NCBI GenBank assembly: GCA_938015405.1
Contig: CALLPZ010000256.1
Coordinates: 1-22,195, forward strand
Length of the DNA stretch: 22,195 nt
Source of the DNA: an uncultured Pseudanabaenaceae cyanobacterium
Lineage (GTDB): Bacteria; Cyanobacteriota; Cyanobacteriia; PCC-9006; JAAUQQ01
Reading direction: 5' to 3'
Shown here: piece after piece, positions 1,963 through 19,356 of the stretch
Layout of the letters: each line of letters opens with the position of its first letter
How positions within the stretch are numbered: the first letter of the stretch is position 1
The notes under the pieces: model-generated
The model's database searches: none
Told to the model about the DNA's origin: nothing
What the model saw: only the letters and a program-made list of their open reading frames with translations
Program-made: the position numbers and the translations under genes

Positions 1963-2514
1963 CTAGGCCGGAGAGATGACTTGCAGGCCATACAAGACAA
2001 GCTCACCCTCGTAGTATTTGCCGGTTCGGCCTAAATCTTTCATGCCTAGCCGCTGCATCACTCGCACCGATGCCACGTTCACAGGCTGGGCAACGGCGTA
2101 AATGTCTCTAAGCCCTAATTCGTTAATCCCCCAGTCCATCAGCGACCGAGCCGCCTCAGTTGCATAGCCATGTCCCCAAGCAGACTGACGTAAGTTCCAG
2201 CCAATCTCCCAATCTCCCGTAGGCCTACCTTGGGGATCGGGTAGTTGTTTTAGTACGACTGTTCCGAGAGGCTGCGGTACGGAGGCTTCACCAGCAGGCT
2301 CATTCGGAACAATCGCCAAGTACCAGCCCTCCTGCTGCGCCATCAGCTTCTCCCAGTGGAAAATCTTGGCTGCGGTGTAGTCCAGGCTGGGCATAGGCTT
2401 CCCCTCAGCGAGATATTGCATGACGATGGGGTCGCTGTATATTTCGTAAGCGATCGCCGCTTCTGAAGCATCCCAGGGACGCAGAAGTAATCGTTGCGTT
2501 TTGAGTTGGAGCAT
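1963..2514 (-). CDS. GNAT family N-acetyltransferase (RimJ/RimL-like)
   Basis: 183 aa. Starts MLQLKTQRLLLRPWDASEA, typical of the RimL-type GNAT N-terminus. Acetyl-CoA binding region WNLRQSAWGHGYATEAARSLMDW, and C-terminal VRVMQRLGMK. Confidence 0.8.
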   Translation of the reverse strand: MLQLKTQRLLLRPWDASEAAIAYEIYSDPIVMQYLAEGKPMPSLDYTAAKIFHWEKLMAQQEGWYLAIVPNEPAGEASVPQPLGTVVLKQLPDPQGRPTGDWEIGWNLRQSAWGHGYATEAARSLMDWGINELGLRDIYAVAQPVNVASVRVMQRLGMKDLGRTGKYYEGELVLYGLQVISPA

Positions 2515-2608
2515 CTGAATTTAGCACCGATGAAACTTACGTTTTCACTGCTTCGCGCTGTTGCCCAATAGCCATGCTGCAGGAGCGCACTTTTATTTCA
2601 TAGTGCAT

Positions 2609-4924
2609 TTATTTCACGACACAGTGGGGAAACCGCTGGGCCAGCGCCGTCACAGCTGGGCAAGCTGGTCTTGCATCCACATTCTCCGGCTTACTCCAGC
2701 TAAACGGAGCCTCCTTTGCCGCCCCCATCCACAGCAGTCGCTTCGCCCGCGTCATCGCCACATAGAGCAAGCGAAATTCCTCCCCCTGCTTCAACTGACA
2801 GGCCCGTTTCCAAGCCTCATCTAAATTGGGCAATCGCATCTCAGCCATGGCCTCGGCTTCATGCAAATAGGTGCGAATCTGCGCCCGCGCCACCTCCGCC
2901 AAGGTAAAGTCGCCCAAGAACTTTCCCTGAGGCGGTACCCAGGGCGTTCCAGGAATCATTTGCAACTGCAAAAACGGCAAAAACACATGGTCCCAATCCA
3001 GCCCCTTGGCCTTGTGCATCGTAATCACCGTCACCTGCCCCACCCGCGTATAGCGAGACTCCGCCTCCTCCAAATCCACACCATCAAACCGCTCCGCACT
3101 GACGATATCCACCAGCACCGCAATCACTGCTGCCAGAGACAATTCACCGCCCACGCGACGTAGGGCCTGATCCGCCAACTTATCCGCCGTGGCTAGCTCC
3201 GCTGCTTCATAGTTAAGCGTCATCGCCAGAAATGACATCAGTTCCAAGGTGGGCAGGGCCAGGCGGGCCTGGAGCAGACCATTGCAATAGCGTCTCGCTT
3301 CTTGAACCTTGGGAGGCTGAGGCCCATCCAGCGGGCCAGGATAGAGAAACTGTTCTGGCGAACTGGCCAAAACATTCAAATCCTGAGGTGGAATCAGCTG
3401 TCGCTTGGCCAGGGTCGCGAGGGCTGCCTTGAGGTTATCGGGAGAATGGGGTCGCTGGATAAATTGCAGCAGCGTCAAGATCTCTCGGGGCACAGCGGAC
3501 TGGCGATCGCTTGCCCCCACTTCATAAATGGGAATGTCATGGTCATCCTGAAGCACCGCCAATTGCTGTGCCAACCATCGCCCCTGCTTGTTCTCCCGCA
3601 CCAAAACCGCAGCCTGAGTTCGACCATCTTGCTTAAACAACTGCAGGAGGCGATCGCGAATCTGCCCCACCGTCTCCACAGTATTCTGGGGAAAATGCAA
3701 CTCCAAGCCCAGACCGACCGGCTCTGGATTGGCATTAGGCTGGGGGTCATCCTGGGGAACGGGCTGGATATGCTGGGATTCAAACGGTGCAATGGCATCG
3801 GCACCATATTTAAGATTGACCCAGTCCAAAACGAAGTTGGCTGCATCCAGAATAATTGGGCTACTGCGCCCCGATTGGTTCATAGTGACAAAGCGATTCT
3901 TGGGCTTAGCGCGATCGCAAAATCGTCGAAAGAAAATCGGATCCGCAGGGGTAAACGTGGAATTAATCGCCTGATTGGGGTCACCCACCCGAATCAAATC
4001 TGGGCTTGCCTCCGGCTGATCGGCTCGCCGCCCCAGCACCTCTAGCAGTTGAGTCTGCAACGGTGTGGAGTCCTGGGCCTCATCCTCAAACACCGCGAAA
4101 CATTGCTCCTGCCAAAAAGCGCGAGTGTCTGGGTCACGCAAGACTTTGAGCGCCGCCAAAATCATGTCGTCGTAATCAATCAGTCCCCGACCCTGGAGCA
4201 TGCCCTGGTAGCGATCGTAGAGACCGGCGGCGATCGCCAACACGTCATAGCTAGCTGTAGAGTTTGTTGCGACCTGGGCTCCTTCAGCCAATTCCATTAG
4301 CTGGGGGGGCAGTAATCCCGAACTCTTGGCTTCATGAATCACCGTCGTCGCTAGGCTGGGCAACACCTCCGTGCGCAAAACGCCCTGGCGGCGCAACCGC
4401 TCCGTCTCCTCGCCATCAAACGATTGCCCCAAAATCAGAGATTGGTAAGCGGCAGGAGAATCAGCAATCCACTGGTCAATGCAGCTACGGATGAGGCGAT
4501 GGCTTTGGTTGGCGCTAACCAGGGAGCTGTCTTGCAAGTTGAGGCCGGATAGCTCGGGATGGCGATTGGCAATGCTAAGGGCCAGGCCATGGAGCGTGTT
4601 GACCGAAAAACCAGTCGTGGGGAAGGAGAGCGATCGCAATTCCTGACGAATCTTGGCCTTCAGGTTCGTTGCAGCAGAACGAGTGAAGGTGACAACAATC
4701 AGCTGTCGCCTCAGATTCAGGCGATTCCGAGCAATGGTAATGGCCGCTGCCCCTGCCATCCCGGTAGACTTTCCGGCACCTGGCACCGCTGACACTGCCA
4801 GCTCTCCCCCCTGCCAATCCGCCATTTGCTGCTGCCCCGCCCGCAGACGACGGCGTATGGATTCAATCGCCTCAAGCGTTTGTTGAGGCAAATCAGACTG
4901 GATTGAAACGGGAGCAGAAGCCAT
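2609..4924 (-). CDS. UvrD/Rep/PcrA-family superfamily-1 DNA helicase
   Basis: 771 aa. N-terminal Walker A (AVSAVPGAGKSTGMA), a second nucleotide-binding region, and the C-terminal helicase motif VI LLYVAMTRAKRLLWM. Confidence 0.82.
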   Translation of the reverse strand: MASAPVSIQSDLPQQTLEAIESIRRRLRAGQQQMADWQGGELAVSAVPGAGKSTGMAGAAAITIARNRLNLRRQLIVVTFTRSAATNLKAKIRQELRSLSFPTTGFSVNTLHGLALSIANRHPELSGLNLQDSSLVSANQSHRLIRSCIDQWIADSPAAYQSLILGQSFDGEETERLRRQGVLRTEVLPSLATTVIHEAKSSGLLPPQLMELAEGAQVATNSTASYDVLAIAAGLYDRYQGMLQGRGLIDYDDMILAALKVLRDPDTRAFWQEQCFAVFEDEAQDSTPLQTQLLEVLGRRADQPEASPDLIRVGDPNQAINSTFTPADPIFFRRFCDRAKPKNRFVTMNQSGRSSPIILDAANFVLDWVNLKYGADAIAPFESQHIQPVPQDDPQPNANPEPVGLGLELHFPQNTVETVGQIRDRLLQLFKQDGRTQAAVLVRENKQGRWLAQQLAVLQDDHDIPIYEVGASDRQSAVPREILTLLQFIQRPHSPDNLKAALATLAKRQLIPPQDLNVLASSPEQFLYPGPLDGPQPPKVQEARRYCNGLLQARLALPTLELMSFLAMTLNYEAAELATADKLADQALRRVGGELSLAAVIAVLVDIVSAERFDGVDLEEAESRYTRVGQVTVITMHKAKGLDWDHVFLPFLQLQMIPGTPWVPPQGKFLGDFTLAEVARAQIRTYLHEAEAMAEMRLPNLDEAWKRACQLKQGEEFRLLYVAMTRAKRLLWMGAAKEAPFSWSKPENVDARPACPAVTALAQRFPHCVVK

Positions 4925-7530: not shown

Positions 7531-8403
7531 CTAATCCTTTTCCGCTTCTAGAGCAGCTTTGGCTTCCTGAAGTCTCTGCTTGTGCTCATCACTAACTTCG
7601 GGGTACTGGAGCTTGAGCGCCTTGAGGCGATCGCTAATAATCTCTGCAACGGTCCAGCGCATAAACTTCTTATCGTCCGCTGGAATCACATACCAAGGAG
7701 CAGCCTCGGTGCTGGTATTGCTCAACATGTCCTCATAGGCCTTTTGGTAGTCATCCCACAGGGCACGCTCCTTAAGGTCAGAATGGGAGAATTTCCAGTT
7801 TTTCTCGGGCCGATTGATGCGGTCTAAAAAGCGCTTCTTCTGCTCAGCTTTGGAGACGTTCAAGAAAAACTTGATCACCATGACGCCATTATTCGTCAGA
7901 TACTCCTCAAAGTTGTTGATTTCCTGGAACCGCTGCTTCCAAATCCCCTTGCCAGTTTTGAGTGCCTCCGGCAGCTGCTGCCCAGCCAAAAACTCGGGGT
8001 GGACTCGCACCACCAAGACCTCCTCGTAATAGGAGCGATTAAAGATGCCGATCCGCCCCCGCTCGGGCAGAGCTTTCATATTACGCCAGAGGTAAGTGTG
8101 GTCACGTTCCTCGGCAGAGGGAGACTTGAAACTAAACACCTGACAGCCCTGGGGGTTCACCCCAGACATCACATGTTTGATTGTGCTGTCCTTGCCCGCC
8201 GCATCCATCGCCTGGAAAACCAGCAAAACGGAATGGGTATTGGAGGCATAGAGGACATCCTGATACTTGGCTAATCGCTCCACACCTACTTTGAGCGCAG
8301 CCTTGGCTTCCGCCTTATCCTTAAACTTGCCGCTTTCTTGGGTCTTATGTTTTTTGAGGGAAACTTTGCTACCGGGCTTGATTAGAAAGGGAGAGGAAGC
8401 CAT
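7531..8403 (-). CDS. PPK2-family polyphosphate:nucleotide phosphotransferase
   Basis: 290 aa. Walker A-like MDAAGKDSTIKHV, Walker B/lid regions (IFNRSYYEEVLVVRVHP) and characteristic PPK2 C-terminal segments (WYVIPADDKKFMRW). Confidence 0.88.
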   Translation of the reverse strand: MASSPFLIKPGSKVSLKKHKTQESGKFKDKAEAKAALKVGVERLAKYQDVLYASNTHSVLLVFQAMDAAGKDSTIKHVMSGVNPQGCQVFSFKSPSAEERDHTYLWRNMKALPERGRIGIFNRSYYEEVLVVRVHPEFLAGQQLPEALKTGKGIWKQRFQEINNFEEYLTNNGVMVIKFFLNVSKAEQKKRFLDRINRPEKNWKFSHSDLKERALWDDYQKAYEDMLSNTSTEAAPWYVIPADDKKFMRWTVAEIISDRLKALKLQYPEVSDEHKQRLQEAKAALEAEKD

Positions 8404-8526
8404 AGAGTGGGGGCGATCGCGTCAGAACTAACCGCAGTCTAAGAGCTTCGACAGGAACAAACAGAGATTCGTCAGCTTTCTTAGTGCAAGTCTGCCACCC
8501 AAGCAAGACTCGGCCAGCAAGAGTCC

Positions 8527-9042
8527 ATGATTAAGCGACGTAGACCCAAGCAATGGTTGATTGATGGACCGGCAGGGGTGGGCTTGATGACGATCGCCCT
8601 GCTGAGCATCGTCGTCGCCATCAACAACATGGTGCTGTCAGCAACGCTAAAATGCGATCGCAACCTCGACCAAACTATTAGCTGCCAAATCACAACCCGG
8701 CTTCTCAACGGTCAAGAGCAACTCACCCTCCATCCCGTGACCTCAGCCAAAGCAGACAGCATCCCCAATACCTACAAAGAAGGCAAAGGTTACAGCTACC
8801 TCCACCACGTGGCTCTCCATACCCCCACCAAATCTGCCTTGCTCCCGCTACCTCGCCCCAATGCCCAAAGCCAGGCTGAGCTCACAACCGAAATCAATCG
8901 GTTCATCAACTCCAGCCAGACTCAATTCAACCTGACCCTTCACCCCAGTACCAAGACTTATCTAGGCAATGCCTTCATCGGCCTCATCTTAATGAGCATG
9001 GGCATTTGGGGTGGAATCTTCCTCAGTCGCGGCATGGATTAA
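8527..9042 (+). CDS. hypothetical membrane protein (two terminal TM helices)
   Basis: 171 aa. N-terminal TM (GVGLMTIALLSIVVAINNMVL) and C-terminal TM (FIGLILMSMGIWGGIFL) flank a polar domain of about 110 residues. Ends 53 bp upstream of the lyase-like gene on the same strand. Start codon uncertain. Confidence 0.45.
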   Translation: MIKRRRPKQWLIDGPAGVGLMTIALLSIVVAINNMVLSATLKCDRNLDQTISCQITTRLLNGQEQLTLHPVTSAKADSIPNTYKEGKGYSYLHHVALHTPTKSALLPLPRPNAQSQAELTTEINRFINSSQTQFNLTLHPSTKTYLGNAFIGLILMSMGIWGGIFLSRGMD

Positions 9043-9095
9043 ATCCCCTCAGCGCCATCAATTCCTGATTCATTTCCCAGCGTTCGCACAACTCC

Positions 9096-10016
9096 ATGCC
9101 ACTCTCTAACTGCCCTAAACCTCATGCTCGAACCTCTGCCCTGGCCCTGGCATTCCTAGGGAGTAGCCTCATCTTCTTAAGCGCATGCCACTCCCAAAGA
9201 CCAGCCAACAATACAAGCCATCGCTCCGAGACCGTTCAATCAGAAATGACTGAGGAGCAAACAGACCAGGCTATGGCAGCCTCCGTTCTATGGGCTGACA
9301 ACTTCCAAGGAGATTGGCAGTCAAACTGGCAGATCCAAGCAAAAGGCAAATGGGGGGAGGAAAACTTTGAGGTCATGGGCGATCGCGACAACCGCTTTGC
9401 CCGGCTTCTACGCGTCCACTATCCCGCAGGCTCTGCCAGCCCCAAGGTCAGCCGAAACCAAGACAGTCCATCCGGTGGCGGGCAATTTTATGGCACCCTC
9501 GGCATCCCTCCCCAAGATCGACTCAAACTCAGCTATAACCTTCGTTTTCCAGAAGATTTTGACTTTGTACGAGGCGGGAAATTACCAGGCCTCTACGGCG
9601 GCAAGGGAGCTAGCGGCGGCAATATCCCCAACGGTCGTGATGGATTTTCAACCCGGTTGATGTGGCGGGCAGGCGGTGCAGGGGAGGTCTATGCCTATCT
9701 CCCCACCAGCGAAGCCTACGGGACTTCTCTGGGCCGAGGCAGCTGGCATTTTCGTCCCGGCCAATGGCATCACATCGAACAAGAGGTTCAGCTCAATCAG
9801 CCTGGCCAGAAGGATGGCTGGGTTCGCATCTGGATGGATGGCCGCCTTGTTCTGGAGCAGAAAAATTTAGTTTTTCGCACGACACCGGAGCTGAAATTGA
9901 ATGGGGTGTTCTTTTCAACATTCTTTGGCGGAGGCGATCGCAGTTGGGCCACCCCCCAAGACACCCATATCGATTTTGCTGACTTCCAAGTCAGCAAAAT
10001 CAGCAAGACTCCCTAG
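9096..10016 (+). CDS. secreted lipoprotein, concanavalin-like polysaccharide-lyase (PL14-like) family candidate
   Basis: 306 aa. Lipoprotein signal (ALALAFLGSSLIFLSAC). Gly-rich motifs GGKLPGLYGGKGASGGNIPNGRDGFSTRLMWRAGGAGEVYAY, then WHF...W.HIEQEV.LN.PG..DGW..IWMDG. From memory these resemble the bacterial/viral 'polysaccharide lyase' beta-sandwich family. Family assignment is unverified. Confidence 0.5.
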   Translation: MPLSNCPKPHARTSALALAFLGSSLIFLSACHSQRPANNTSHRSETVQSEMTEEQTDQAMAASVLWADNFQGDWQSNWQIQAKGKWGEENFEVMGDRDNRFARLLRVHYPAGSASPKVSRNQDSPSGGGQFYGTLGIPPQDRLKLSYNLRFPEDFDFVRGGKLPGLYGGKGASGGNIPNGRDGFSTRLMWRAGGAGEVYAYLPTSEAYGTSLGRGSWHFRPGQWHHIEQEVQLNQPGQKDGWVRIWMDGRLVLEQKNLVFRTTPELKLNGVFFSTFFGGGDRSWATPQDTHIDFADFQVSKISKTP

Positions 10017-10028
10017 GCTTCTAAATCG

Positions 10029-12062
10029 CTACTGCTCCAGCAAAGCAGCCGATTTGGGGTCCAGAACCTGAGTCAGGTCATCCGCCGGCATAGGCATCAG
10101 TCGAAGACTAAAGTCCTTGAACACCAAGTTCTCTTGATCCGATGGTGGCGAGAGCAGCTGAGGCACTGCCGTAACAATGGAATCAGGGATGACCTGATCA
10201 AAAGCATCAGATTGAGCAACCGCGTCCGAGTTCAACCCAGCGAGCGTCACCCGTGAAGCCTGTTGTTGAGACACAACAGTCTGGGGGACAAGCACCACCG
10301 TACGGCCTTTACCCTGCCCCTTAACCGTTACGTCACCCCGACGAATTTCTAAGGGCTGCCGAAACTCCAACTCACCAATCGGCAAACGCACTTCTAAATG
10401 CTTAGCCTGAGACTGATTAATCAGGGACTGCAAGGCAGCAGCATCATCCAGACCATCATGGGGAACCACACCGTAATCAATGGCTTGAACCCGAGTGATG
10501 CCCTGGGATGAAGCTTGGTATTGGCTCTCCAGCTGCCAGCCCTGCAAATCGGCAATGGGGTTCATCACGCCATTTAGCCAGAGCACACCGATGATAAAAC
10601 TCGCCACCTGGGTCCAGAGCAAAAATCGCGACAGATTGACTTTCAGCCCTAACTTCCAAGCTGCACCTCCAGCATCAATACTCTGGTTACCTCGGTTGGT
10701 CCATTTCTGCTTAACCAGATTCATCTGAGTCCAGATTTTAACCAGTGAGCCCAGCCACTGGGTCAATAGCAAAATCGGCAAATGCAGCAGCTTGAGATGA
10801 GACGGCCGACCCGCAAAAATCGCCAGCAACATCGCCAGACGGCTCAGAATAATCCAGCTACCAATCAACTGAAAGCTGACCCAATGGCCCTGCAAAGCAG
10901 CAATTAGCAAAAAGCTAGGACTGAGCAAAGAGGTCCACATACTCAGCCGCTGATCCAGCAAGCTATACCAGAGGAAGCCTCCCGTCTTTCTGGGCCCCAA
11001 CGCCAATGCCCGGCCATTATTGCGCAGCATGTTGCCGAACCAACGGCGCATGTTCTGGTAAGAGCGTTCCACCACTGAACCGGACAGGGTCTCAATGGAA
11101 TAGACCAGCACATCAGGGATGTAGAGCATGTCATAGCCCTGACGCAGCAGCCAAAACCAAGTGCTCTTGTCATCCCCCGAAAGGAACTTGAATCGTCCCC
11201 ACAACCAATCGTCAAGCTGGTCATTGCACAGTTGTTCGGCAAAGCCAGGGTCGAGAGCCGCTTCCGCCCGAAAAAGGGAAAAACGTCCCGTCAAGCACAT
11301 GACCTTACGATCCAGCGAATCAGAACACATCTGATAGTGGCGCTGGGCAAAGCGCATGTGGAACCATTCCGAGAAAAAGGAGGAGCCTTTGACCACAGGC
11401 AATTCATCCGTGGTCAGCGCGCCCATTTTAGGAAACAGGGTAAAGAAAGGCAGGCAGCGCAGCAGGGTCGCTGGCGTCAACTCAGAATCCCCATCCATCA
11501 AAGCAATCACACCATGCTTCGGGAAACCCTCCTCAGACAAGACCTCCAACCCATCTGCCATGGCCTTGCGCTTGCCATCCTTTTGAACCATCAAAATCAG
11601 GTTGATGGACTGGAGCTGGGGGTCAGTCTCTTCCAGGATTTCGCGAATGCGCTGGTTTTCGGCGTTGCTACTGCTGTTGGCTAAGACTGTCAGTCCCTGG
11701 GGCAGTAACTGCGCTTCCCGAGCGATCGCCCGAAAAACTCGCTCAGTAATCCAGTCCTTCTCTTTATAAGTGGGCACCACCAAACAAACCGGCGGCAAAG
11801 CTTCCAGGGGAACCTGGCGCGCTCGCTTACGCCAACGGCGAAAGGTCCAACGCAAATAGAACTGGCCGCGCACCCAGCGCAGCAATAACAGTGACCAGCG
11901 CCAACTGCCAATCACGCCAAAGCCCACAAAGGCAGGCAGCTCCCAAAACATGCCGTACAAAGCCTTGAGATGCCAAATATGATTGAAGGCCAACCACATC
12001 ACCCAGGCAATCAGCCCTAGATGCAGCCAAGGCAATAGTTTCTGCAATCTTGCTTTCATCAT
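10029..12062 (-). CDS. processive family-2 glycosyltransferase, polysaccharide synthase of the NodC/HasA/Alg8/chitin-synthase type
   Basis: 677 aa. Two N-terminal TM helices, then GT2 motifs: PTYKEKDW, QKDGKRKAMADG (GKRxA motif), ALMDGDSELTP (DxD), LSGDDKSTWFWLLRQGYDMLYIPD (compare SGDDRxLT...Y.PdA of NodC/HasA) and SYQNMRRWFGNMLRN (QxxRW-type). A multi-TM C-terminal channel region follows, then an extra roughly 190-aa soluble domain. Confidence 0.82.
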   Translation of the reverse strand: MMKARLQKLLPWLHLGLIAWVMWLAFNHIWHLKALYGMFWELPAFVGFGVIGSWRWSLLLLRWVRGQFYLRWTFRRWRKRARQVPLEALPPVCLVVPTYKEKDWITERVFRAIAREAQLLPQGLTVLANSSSNAENQRIREILEETDPQLQSINLILMVQKDGKRKAMADGLEVLSEEGFPKHGVIALMDGDSELTPATLLRCLPFFTLFPKMGALTTDELPVVKGSSFFSEWFHMRFAQRHYQMCSDSLDRKVMCLTGRFSLFRAEAALDPGFAEQLCNDQLDDWLWGRFKFLSGDDKSTWFWLLRQGYDMLYIPDVLVYSIETLSGSVVERSYQNMRRWFGNMLRNNGRALALGPRKTGGFLWYSLLDQRLSMWTSLLSPSFLLIAALQGHWVSFQLIGSWIILSRLAMLLAIFAGRPSHLKLLHLPILLLTQWLGSLVKIWTQMNLVKQKWTNRGNQSIDAGGAAWKLGLKVNLSRFLLWTQVASFIIGVLWLNGVMNPIADLQGWQLESQYQASSQGITRVQAIDYGVVPHDGLDDAAALQSLINQSQAKHLEVRLPIGELEFRQPLEIRRGDVTVKGQGKGRTVVLVPQTVVSQQQASRVTLAGLNSDAVAQSDAFDQVIPDSIVTAVPQLLSPPSDQENLVFKDFSLRLMPMPADDLTQVLDPKSAALLEQ

Positions 12063-12095: not shown

Positions 12096-13694
12096 CTATT
12101 GGGCAGCACTAGGAGAAAACGCACTCAAGAAAGGCAACTTCGACTGGGAACGCTGGGTCCCAAAACTCAAACTCGCCATCTGGCCAACGCCACAAAAACG
12201 ATTGGCAGCCTGAACATGGTTCTCAGGAGCAAGACGCACTGTCACTCGCGCGAGAGCCTGCTGTTGCATATGGGCAGGTAGCGCAGGCAGAAGCCGCTGC
12301 TCTCGGTTTTGCACCACCGACAAACCACTCACCGATTCAATCAAATCCACCTGACCCACCACCGGGGCCTTCTTATCCTTCAAATAAACACTGACCGGCT
12401 GGCTCTCATCTATCCGCTCAGCATCCTTGCTGGTCACGAGAGTCTCAACCCAGAGATCCTCACAGTCCAGAAGCGTCAACAATTCATCGGAACGCTCCAC
12501 CTGCTCTCCAGCATCGTGGCTCGTCTGATACACGACACCGGCGAAGGGAGCAGGTAAATCACCCAGGGGCTGAATCGGATTGAGGCCTTGACCATTGACC
12601 TTGGCCATCTGGCTTTTGAGCTGCTCTACCTTGACCTGTAGCCCAGGCATCTTCGCCATGCTGGTTTGGTAGTTCTGTTGAATTTTCTGCTGTTGCTGCT
12701 GAAGGCTCAAGCTGAGCTGCTGCTGGCGCAGCTGATCCCCCACAGGCTGAGATGAAGGCGCTGATGCGGCGATCGCCATCTGCTCCTGGGTCATCTGAAC
12801 CTTCTGCTGGGCAGCCGCAAGGGCAGCTTGTTGAGCAATGATTTGATCCTGGGCAATCTCCCAGTCTGCCGCCAACTCATCCACCTTTTGCTGAGCAATG
12901 AGTTGCTGCTCCCAAAGGGACTTGTAGCGTTGATGAACTTGTTTAGCCGCCTTGGCCTTCGTTTTAGCCTCGCTTAACTTTGCACTGGCCAGCTCCACAG
13001 CTCCTTGCTGCACGGCTTGCTGCTGACGCAATTGCTGTAGCTCCAGCAGGCGCAGCTGCTCATCCTCTTCGCGCTGCAGACGAACGCTGTCCTTCGACAT
13101 CGCTGCCAACTGACTGGCCTGGACATTCAAAGACTGAGCCTGCTGCTCCAGCATGGCAAGCTCCTGCTGCTGAGCGGCGAGCTCTAAAGATGCAGCTTGA
13201 AACTGCAAAGCCATCTCCTCCGGAGACGCTACTCCACCGACAAAGCCAGAGTCATCGGCAACGAAATTAATCCGAGCCAAGGGTTGGCCGGCACTCACAC
13301 TCGCACCAGGACGAGCAAAAAAGTCTTGAATCGTGCCTCGCTCAGGTGCTTTAACCGTAATCGTGCGCCCATTGACAACGGCATAGTCTGTCGTGACATG
13401 GAGCCAGCGATAGCTGAGGGAACTCCCCCAAATCCCTAAAGCAGCACCACCACATCCCAAGGCAGCCAACCCAATTAAGCCTCTCTGGACAACGCGCTTA
13501 CCCAGAAAAACGGAGGAGCTGGAAGCATCCCCCTGAGACGATAGCGAATCTGAGGCCTCGGCATTCACCAAAGGACTGGAGAAAGGAGGCGACACCACAC
13601 TCACGGCTTGGGTCTCAACCCCGACATCCGATCTGGCATAACCGCTAGATGGAGTCAGCGGATCGCGTCCGTGGGGGTTAGGAGCAGCAGTCAT
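12096..13694 (-). CDS. HlyD-family membrane fusion (periplasmic adaptor) protein
   Basis: 532 aa. Ser-rich disordered N-terminus of about 65 aa, one TM (GLIGLAALGCGGAALGIW), the lipoyl/beta-hairpin signature YAVVNGRTITVKAPERGTIQDFFARPGASVSAGQPLARI, a Gln/Ala-rich coiled coil of about 230 residues, and a C-terminal beta-barrel segment (PAPFAGVVYQ...). The gene's stop (12096) lies 33 bp upstream of the GT2 start codon (12062), which suggests one operon. Confidence 0.8.
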   Translation of the reverse strand: MTAAPNPHGRDPLTPSSGYARSDVGVETQAVSVVSPPFSSPLVNAEASDSLSSQGDASSSSVFLGKRVVQRGLIGLAALGCGGAALGIWGSSLSYRWLHVTTDYAVVNGRTITVKAPERGTIQDFFARPGASVSAGQPLARINFVADDSGFVGGVASPEEMALQFQAASLELAAQQQELAMLEQQAQSLNVQASQLAAMSKDSVRLQREEDEQLRLLELQQLRQQQAVQQGAVELASAKLSEAKTKAKAAKQVHQRYKSLWEQQLIAQQKVDELAADWEIAQDQIIAQQAALAAAQQKVQMTQEQMAIAASAPSSQPVGDQLRQQQLSLSLQQQQQKIQQNYQTSMAKMPGLQVKVEQLKSQMAKVNGQGLNPIQPLGDLPAPFAGVVYQTSHDAGEQVERSDELLTLLDCEDLWVETLVTSKDAERIDESQPVSVYLKDKKAPVVGQVDLIESVSGLSVVQNREQRLLPALPAHMQQQALARVTVRLAPENHVQAANRFCGVGQMASLSFGTQRSQSKLPFLSAFSPSAAQ

Positions 13695-19194: not shown

Positions 19195-19279
19195 GCACGA
19201 TTAGCTTAGTGGCCTAAAGCATCCGTCCGACTGTTGTCGTGACGGAGGATCGTAGGTTCGACTCCTACATCGCGCTCCA
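19195..19279 (+). tRNA. tRNA-like gene with non-canonical anticodon arm (no 7-nt anticodon loop); possible tRNA mimic or pseudogene
   Basis: Manual cloverleaf: acceptor GCACGAT/ATCGCGC (one A-C mismatch), U8A9, D-arm GCTT-AGTGGCCTA-AAGC, 5-nt variable loop GGATC, T-arm GTAGG-TTCGACT-CCTAC, discriminator T, encoded CCA. The anticodon position is occupied by a 25-nt hairpin TCCGTC-CGAC-tgtt-GTCG-t-GACGGA, which is 10 bp plus one bulge and a tetraloop. Confidence 0.4.
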
Positions 19280-19281
19280 AC

Positions 19282-19356
19282 TGAAAGTTAGCTCACTGGT
19301 AGAGCATCAGACTCATAATCTGCTTGTAACAGGTTCGATTCCTGTACTTTTCACCA
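19282..19356 (+). tRNA. tRNA-Met or tRNA-Ile2 (anticodon CAU)
   Basis: Manual fold: U8A9, D-arm GCTC-ACTGGTA-GAGC, anticodon arm TCAGA-CTCATAA-TCTGC (U33, CAU, A37), 5-nt variable loop, T-arm ACAGG-TTCGATT-CCTGT, discriminator A, encoded CCA. The acceptor stem is AU-rich with a mismatched 1:72 (T-C) and one GU pair. Starts 2 nt after the CCA of the preceding tRNA-like gene. Confidence 0.6.

Follow-up and report, generated by a model that had tools for sequence, protein, structure and literature searches.

In synthase-dependent polysaccharide systems, every operon has an enzyme that degrades its own polymer, as noted by the authors of a study of AlgL, and AlgL itself clears periplasmic alginate, whose accumulation during synthesis is otherwise lethal (PMC8829089). 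For cyanobacteria, two genome surveys reported Alg8-like genes with no clear synthase-dependent pathway: AlgL was sought through PF05426 together with PilZ-HlyD_3 proteins, and neither was found (Pereira et al. 2015), and no clear synthase-dependent pathway could be identified in the second survey (Chrismas et al. 2016). An alginate-like polymer from a Synechocystis isolate was described in a 2023 paper on chemical grounds only, with no genetics (PMC10629183). In the literature that we searched, we found neither cyanobacterial PL14 enzymes described nor a module that combines a membrane-fusion protein (MFP), an Alg8-like synthase and a PL14 enzyme. Here, we describe such a module in a 22,195-nucleotide stretch of DNA from an uncultured Pseudanabaenaceae cyanobacterium (contig CALLPZ010000256.1, positions 1 to 22,195 of the forward strand), which is analyzed as a whole and is hereafter called the window. 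The gene at the center of the analysis (9096..10016, + strand) encodes a PL14 lipoprotein lyase of 306 amino acids (aa) including its signal peptide. We propose, at a probability of roughly two in three, that this lyase is the lipid-anchored, periplasm-facing, dedicated degradative partner of an Alg8-like synthase and an MFP that make an acidic, most likely alginate-type polymer. Note that public annotation already labels these proteins 'polysaccharide lyase' and 'mannuronan synthase'; what is new here is the recognized system and the non-orthologous replacement within it, not the family assignment.

Family, fold and anchor of the lyase

The initial annotation, made from the letters of the DNA alone, had placed the protein in a PL14-like family on account of a glycine-rich block and a W...IWMDG block, and had proposed a Pfam search as a check. 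That search matched PF21294 (Polysacc_lyase_14) with a score of 219.9 bits, where the cut-off is 27, and with E 4.1e-65, which is far beyond chance; the match extends over profile positions 6-215 of 215 (210 positions), and both blocks are present inside the match (GGKLPGLYGGKGASGG at residues 160-175 and WVRIWMDG at residues 242-249). An NCBIfam search of the lyase gave no matching model. Among all PDB sequences, the top phmmer match was 5GMT, the PL14 alginate lyase AkAly30 of Aplysia kurodai (E 2.6e-35, 125 bits), followed by the PL36 alginate lyase Aly36B (6KCW/6KCV/6KZK) and then by the chlorovirus PL14 enzyme vAL-1 (3A0N), the latter two within a range of 34-53 bits and vAL-1 itself at 34 bits; the fungal glucuronan lyase 2ZZJ matched weakly.

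An AlphaFold model built on 25 homologs had a mean predicted local distance difference test score (pLDDT) of 81 and, between residues 61 and ~302, an all-beta domain modeled with confidence, in which most 10-residue blocks reached pLDDT 85-98. We assign the PL14 beta-jelly-roll catalytic domain to residues 63-302 (9282..10001, +). In a Foldseek search against PDB, 5GMT again came first (E 1.5e-20, TM-score 0.75-0.77, 33% identity), and Aly36B and vAL-1 ranked after it (E ~4e-15), so that the lyase is nearer 5GMT than 3A0N by both sequence and fold. The PL14-like membership that had been proposed is thus borne out by the Pfam match, by the sequence matches to PL14 and PL36 structures and by the fold search. 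Five active-site positions are invariant in the alignment of the 25 homologs, namely K162 (codon 9579-9581), S185 (9648-9650), R187 (9654-9656), Y199 (9690-9692) and Y201 (9696-9698), all on the + strand. Their equivalents in AkAly30 are K99, S126, R128, Y140 and Y142. In phmmer alignments in which wild-type chains of Aly36B were compared with K143A/Y185A mutant chains, K162 and Y201 of the lyase aligned with K143 and Y185. The protein is therefore a genuine member of PL14, its active site is intact, and catalytic activity is predicted. A non-catalytic, lectin-like lipoprotein that binds polymer while retaining the PL14 fold would agree with the lower-ranked Foldseek matches, as this fold is common to many carbohydrate-binding jelly rolls; however, given the invariant active-site positions and the high similarity to active lyases in the Pfam, phmmer and Foldseek searches, we consider the probability of such a protein to be close to nil.

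The nearest solved relative of the cyanobacterial PL14 clade is thus a mollusc digestive alginate lyase (33% identity) and not a viral PL14 or bacterial PL36 enzyme, and this closeness to 5GMT suggests that the bacterial and animal enzymes of PL14 may be linked in evolution.

We next consider the N-terminus of the lyase, where the initial annotation had read the motif LSAC as a lipobox. The motif is there: residues 21-31 (LGSSLIFLSAC, with LSAC at 28-31) fit the PROSITE lipobox pattern PS51257, and Cys31 falls within the required range of 15-35. A hydrophobic h-region spans residues 13-31 and is preceded by K8, H10 and R12. The ancillary PROSITE rule for lipoboxes calls for K or R among the first seven residues, and the lyase narrowly misses it, since the first such residue is K8. 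We therefore delimit a signal peptide with lipobox at residues 1-31 (9096..9188, +), with predicted lipidation at Cys31 (9186-9188), and a low-complexity tether at residues 32-62 (9189..9281, +). Residues 1-60 are disordered in the model (pLDDT 41-55), and the region after the Cys is rich in S, T, P and Q and varies in length among homologs. The lipobox recurs: among 115 Met-starting sequences out of the 120 homologs listed, a lipobox Cys at the end of a hydrophobic N-terminus was present in 58 by the strict pattern and in 93 by a relaxed one. The window lyase thus represents, by this prediction, the common lipoprotein form of its PL14 relatives.

Other forms of the family were also seen. In the variants P0010, P0012 and P0014 (498-513 aa), RTX repeats (HemolysinCabind) replace the signal peptide and no lipobox is present, and the variants P0016 and P0111 carry a CBM2 module. 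At locus L006, a lipoprotein-type PL14 gene (2330-3259, -) and an RTX-type PL14 gene (8001-9497, +) flank one MFP-synthase pair.

Linkage to an Alg8-like synthase and a membrane-fusion protein

The lyase gene converges on a gene for a GT2 synthase of 677 aa (10029..12062, -), and a gap of 12 bp separates their stop codons, which confirms the tail-to-tail placement noted initially. The synthase matched Glyco_tranf_2_3 (Pfam, E 2.4e-32) and has six predicted membrane segments, and many of its orthologs are labeled 'mannuronan synthase' or 'glycosyltransferase Alg8' in JGI annotation. To compare it with Alg8, we seeded a search with a P. aeruginosa Alg8 sequence and used only the returned database proteins as evidence; NCBI gives the proteins in the cluster of P0245 the name P. 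aeruginosa mannuronan synthase. The returned sequences were C-terminal fragments covering the C-terminal half of Alg8, and within this scope the synthase was 39% (E 5e-54) and 42% (E 2e-48) identical to them over residues 231-494, in an alignment that reached the very C-terminal end of Alg8. On the other hand, phmmer against all PDB chains returned nothing for the synthase at E <= 0.01, the only NCBIfam matches, to PgaC/NodC, were weak and lay far below threshold, and the best named relatives were Alg8 proteins; a HasA-type hyaluronan synthase was therefore rejected. Thus, of the 'Alg8/HasA-like' label that the synthase had been given, the Alg8-like part stands because of the 39-42% identity to authentic P. 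aeruginosa mannuronan synthase, and the HasA-like part does not, as no specific similarity was found.

Alg8 stops at its last membrane helix, whereas the window synthase runs on for ~180 aa and most of its relatives for ~235 aa. This extra C-terminal domain covers residues ~505-677 (10029-10550, -). The first ~100 residues of the extension are conserved and the tail of the window copy has diverged; the window synthase is also shorter than the family median (208 versus about 235 aa after residue 470). The model of the domain was confident for only ~75 residues. These bear a weak resemblance (best E 3e-3) to the cap at the N-terminus and the first rungs of polysaccharide enzymes built as a right-handed beta-helix, among them the A-module of the AlgE4 epimerase (27-28% identity, root-mean-square deviation 2.6 Å). 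A fold search with the domain gave no match at E <= 0.001, and we regard its modeled beta-helix nature as suggestive. Loop 444-480 contains six K/R and one D/E, and the C-terminal domain is net acidic, which by the positive-inside rule suggests that the domain is periplasmic. Since the extra domain is absent from Alg8, the synthase is best described, on sequence comparison, as Alg8-like and as a distinct cyanobacterial subfamily with a domain architecture that departs from that of Alg8.

Relatives of the synthase also occur outside cyanobacteria. A tblastn search of plasmids for named Alg8 returned only alphaproteobacterial genes labeled 'glycosyltransferase', and plasmid synthases ~40% identical to the window synthase were found in Rhizobium, Loktanella, Jannaschia, Tateyamaria and Salipiger. 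The cluster of Jannaschia sp. M317 (locus L090, plasmid NZ_CP081156.1, 14813-33928) includes a sugar-nucleotide dehydrogenase, a nucleotidyltransferase, a NosD beta-helix protein and an AlgX-like protein, and no PL14 was detected among the seven cluster proteins scanned.

Upstream of the synthase by 33 bp lies the gene for an HlyD-type MFP of 532 aa (12096..13694, -). Its Pfam matches are HlyD_3 (E 1.5e-15), HlyD_D23 and Biotin_lipoyl, and NCBIfam matches were to MFP subfamilies; one transmembrane segment (~72-90) and a long Q-rich coiled coil are predicted. Nothing was returned by phmmer against all PDB sequences at E <= 0.01. Pfam detected no PilZ domain in the window MFP, which therefore departs from the PilZ-HlyD architecture of Alg44 and agrees with the survey of Pereira et al. 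(2015). In 11 scanned loci (L016, L024, L028, L039, L040, L042, L043, L047, L052, L055 and L059), and also at L005 (3636-5756), the partner MFP has an N-terminal EAL domain, which is absent from the window MFP. This domain keeps the EVL and ELTE motifs and is without DDFGTG; judged from these motifs, it may be a receptor for cyclic di-guanosine monophosphate (c-di-GMP) that stands in for the PilZ domain of Alg44.

To see how far the arrangement is conserved, we scanned one genome per species, which yielded 550 stretches encoding lyase relatives, and used the best 80 of them. Seventy-eight of these loci carry cyanobacterial titles and the other two the title 'uncultured bacterium', and the closest are metagenome-assembled genomes of Pseudanabaenaceae. 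A synthase ortholog lay within the fetched flank in 51 of the 80 loci; of the 45 loci with 5 kb or more of flank to each side, 35 had one. In 34 loci the two genes were direct neighbors (within 600 bp): 24 of these pairs converge, like the pair in the window, and in the other 10 the lyase gene follows the synthase gene in the same direction. An MFP gene was found together with that of the synthase in 45 of the 51 linked loci. When seven homologs on long contigs were inspected individually, the synthase was adjacent or one gene away in all. The nearest relatives share the gene order LexA, UvrD, bilin reductase, PPK2, lyase, synthase, MFP and RtcB, and GC content is even across the window, indicating that the module is resident and not a recent insertion. 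The pairing, which the initial annotation had called unusual, is so relative to Pseudomonas and Azotobacter, where the lyase is AlgL of family PL5; within cyanobacteria, however, PL14 is the synthase's regular partner.

This conservation also bears on a nutritional role, in which the enzyme would scavenge exogenous alginate or uronans and lie beside the synthase gene incidentally. Most characterized alginate lyases are catabolic and some PL14 copies are unlinked, as such a role would lead one to expect. However, many cyanobacterial genera keep the linkage to the synthase, which occurs in two orientations, neither the window nor the sampled loci contain genes for uptake or downstream catabolism, and the hosts are photoautotrophs. 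We therefore hold a scavenging enzyme to be very improbable.

Around the junction of the two genes, a scan of 8300-10200 revealed no sigma-70-like promoter, and terminator-like hairpins occurred at chance level only. A perfect 9-bp inverted repeat, TTTGCTGAC-N6-GTCAGCAAA, is located in the last lyase codons (window 9976-9999, +), immediately ahead of the 12 bp that separate the lyase gene from the convergent synthase gene. It has no T-run and may simply reflect the conserved peptide DFADFQVS.

Polymer and role of the lyase

The most likely product of the module is, on comparative grounds, poly-beta-D-mannuronate, an alginate-type polymer. We infer this from relatives since the window has neither a GDP-mannose dehydrogenase nor an epimerase; the grounds are the 39-42% identity of the synthase to P. 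aeruginosa mannuronan synthase, matches of AlgD and AlgE type, the shared synthase family and the polyM-type listing of the nearest solved lyase. Among the 51 linked clusters, 9 include a sugar-nucleotide dehydrogenase of the GDP-mannose-6-dehydrogenase type, and 9 include a large beta-helix protein. Clusters extended by both lie at L007 (9041-16133), L093 (10931-17020), L043, L058, L059, L061, L080, L082 and L085, with the added genes between or beside those of the synthase and the lyase. At L007, the dehydrogenase scored 397 bits against P. aeruginosa AlgD (1MFZ) and 245 bits against the best UDP-glucose dehydrogenase, and the beta-helix protein matched A-modules of the Azotobacter mannuronan C5-epimerases AlgE4 and AlgE6 (E ~4e-40). 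Clusters of this type, as judged by these matches, are a near-complete alginate-type gene set in some cyanobacteria. The window synthase is 47% identical to that of L007 over 640 aa, the extra C-terminal domain included. AkAly30 (5GMT), in turn, is listed in a review as a polyM-type alginate lyase (EC 4.2.2.3).

Several observations weigh against our proposal for the lyase and its polymer. The dehydrogenase and the beta-helix protein are confined to the nine clusters each just mentioned, and no GDP-mannose dehydrogenase, epimerase or outer-membrane component was found in the 22-kb window. The polyM-specificity loop of AkAly30, which according to the review involves a Cys115-Cys124 disulfide and Gly118, is shortened in the phmmer alignment of the window lyase, and both cysteines are missing. 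PL14 also includes glucuronan lyases. Ten of the 45 well-flanked loci carry PL14 without a synthase nearby, among them the Phormidesmis priestleyi copy; we had expected the module in that organism and found its PL14 gene unlinked. Unlinked paralogs therefore exist, and PL14 is not strictly tied to the module. In addition, the lyase and synthase genes of the window are convergent and cannot share a transcript, and the membrane that carries the lyase could be the plasma, the outer or the thylakoid membrane.

Some of these observations would suit the same architecture making and cutting another polyuronate, such as beta-1,4-glucuronan or a mixed or modified uronan. The family has endo-beta-1,4-glucuronan lyases (vAL-1, EC 4.2.2.14; subfamilies 1 and 5), and the loop, which is not conserved, the lack of a GDP-mannose dehydrogenase in the window and its absence from most linked clusters all fit such a polymer. 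However, the lyase scores 125 bits against the alginate lyase 5GMT and 34 against vAL-1, and the synthase aligns with authentic Alg8 to its C-terminal end. Furthermore, the linked dehydrogenase of L007 is of the AlgD type and not of the UDP-glucose type, with an AlgE-type epimerase match beside it, and synthases with and without dehydrogenase and epimerase genes form one family (47% identity, shared architecture). Taking both sides together, we consider a polyuronate other than mannuronan unlikely, and continue with an alginate-type polymer as the preferred product.

Given this product, the module would work as follows. The MFP and the Alg8-like synthase would polymerize the polyuronate and translocate it across the plasma membrane, and the MFP would hand it to an outer-membrane channel, by analogy with the proposed XcsAB-TolC route for cellulose. 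The lyase would be exported, lipid-modified at Cys31 and tethered by its flexible linker of ~30 residues to a membrane surface facing the periplasm, where it would cut chains by beta-elimination through the conserved Lys/Tyr machinery. Its targets would be chains that miss the export conduit, or nascent chains that are trimmed, and polymer build-up in the periplasm would thereby be prevented, as shown for AlgL in Pseudomonas. The analysis shows the family, the fold, the conserved active-site residues, the lipobox and the conserved gene linkage; we infer the lyase activity, the mannuronan substrate, the periplasmic orientation and the role in homeostasis in this scheme. Trimming or clearing of the synthase's polymer had also been suggested in the initial annotation, and the conserved linkage (51 of 80 loci, 34 directly adjacent) supports this idea. 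By analogy with AlgL, removal of periplasmic polymer is the best-supported physiological role, and chain-length control and matrix release are alternatives.

A different site of action would be the outer membrane or cell surface, where the lyase would remodel or release mature sheath or matrix polymer for dispersal, motility or filament release. The RTX variants, which have no lipobox, and the CBM2 variants are clearly built for secretion or matrix binding, which suggests that some family members act outside the cell; the two PL14 types around one MFP-synthase pair at L006 and the existence of unlinked paralogs point in the same direction, and biofilm detachment has also been proposed for AlgL (PMC8829089). 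On the other hand, the window protein belongs to the lipoprotein form and has a short tether, the lyase gene most commonly lies tightly beside the synthase gene, and the precedent of synthase-dependent systems favors a periplasmic role (PMC8829089). A surface enzyme therefore appears distinctly improbable to us for the window protein, and a periplasm-facing lyase remains our preferred interpretation.

The module is a concrete candidate, open to testing, for a pathway by which cyanobacteria would make an alginate-like polymer, and the rule that synthase-dependent systems include an enzyme degrading their own product would hold here through non-orthologous replacement. The bacterial PL14 clade is also new material for enzyme discovery, with its lipid-anchored form and its RTX and CBM2 variants. 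A broader interpretation, which we advance tentatively and at somewhat less than even odds, is that many cyanobacteria, filamentous ones and others, encode a complete, unrecognized alginate-type pathway rebuilt from non-orthologous parts, with PL14 in place of AlgL and an HlyD adaptor in place of the PilZ-containing Alg44. It would include, with the same reservation, an MFP sometimes fused to a degenerate EAL domain, a synthase with a beta-helix stub, and AlgD- and AlgE-type genes in some lineages. If this were true, alginate-like polymers would be a widespread component of the cyanobacterial matrix, and the bacterial PL14 clade could be the evolutionary source of mollusc alginate lyases.

Other features and comparison with known systems

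A small open reading frame (ORF) of 171 aa (8527..9042, +) with two predicted transmembrane segments (14-32 and 149-167) lies 53 bp upstream of the lyase gene. It had no Pfam or NCBIfam match, and a homolog was present only in the nearest relative, L010, and absent from L003. We set it aside as a core component, as it is not conserved beyond the nearest relative, and its membership in the system is doubtful. At L005 (8937-13563) and L024, a protein of ~850 aa with a filamentous-haemagglutinin N-terminal domain is encoded beside the lyase gene; at L024, the 862-aa ORF is 162 bp downstream of it, and at L005 an ShlB/POTRA transporter follows the haemagglutinin-type protein, the two making a two-partner secretion pair. 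Elsewhere in the window, a tRNA at 19195-19276 (+) scored 48 bits in Rfam and has ~14 nt in the anticodon loop where the model has 6. ARAGORN gave it a four-base 'anticodon', actg, and 5 nt separate it from a normal tRNA-Met(CAT) that lies downstream, at 19282-19353. A further, undetermined tRNA was called by ARAGORN alone at 7989-8064 (-), inside the PPK2 coding sequence, and this call is probably a false positive because Rfam has no match there.

Among solved enzymes, AkAly30 is the closest relative of the window lyase, with a shared fold and conserved Lys/Ser/Arg/Tyr/Tyr positions. It is, however, a eukaryotic digestive enzyme, secreted and catabolic, whereas the window lyase is predicted to be lipid-anchored and associated with biosynthesis, and the disulfide-bearing specificity loop of AkAly30 corresponds to a shortened loop with no cysteines. 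vAL-1 and Aly36B share the beta-jelly roll and the equivalent catalytic Lys and Tyr but are much more distant, and they serve other ends: vAL-1, listed as a glucuronan lyase, degrades algal cell walls, and Aly36B is a catabolic alginate lyase.

Among cyanobacterial systems, the closest in layout is XcsA/XcsB/XcsC, in which a GT2 synthase, an HlyD-like protein and a product-cleaving enzyme are often syntenic and TolC has been proposed as a partner (PMC12430437). XcsA resembles BcsA, has a PilZ domain and produces a neutral glucan, whereas the window synthase is Alg8-like without PilZ. XcsC is a glycoside hydrolase (endoglucanase), whereas the cleaving enzyme of the window is a lyase, and a uronate polymer is therefore implied. 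PgaB of the poly-N-acetylglucosamine (PNAG) system is likewise a lipid-anchored enzyme that modifies or cleaves the polymer, and its loss leads to periplasmic polymer accumulation (PMC8829089); its fold, its hydrolase/deacetylase chemistry and its polymer are all unlike those of the window lyase.

The alginate system of Pseudomonas and Azotobacter offers the nearest functional parallel. There, AlgL is encoded with an Alg8-type synthase and acts on the polyuronate of that synthase (PMC8829089). The window has a minimal three-gene module without AlgK/E/X/I/J/F, and its HlyD-type MFP is without the N-terminal PilZ domain that Alg44, the c-di-GMP receptor and MFP partner of Alg8, combines with an HlyD-like periplasmic region. 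AlgL is a soluble periplasmic protein, whereas the window lyase has a lipobox; AlgL is also a PL5 (alpha/alpha) toroid, whereas the window lyase is a PL14 beta-jelly roll. Indeed, Pfam gave no PF05426 match for the window lyase, and its modeled fold is a jelly roll and not an alpha toroid. The window lyase is thus an analogue, and not a homologue, of AlgL.

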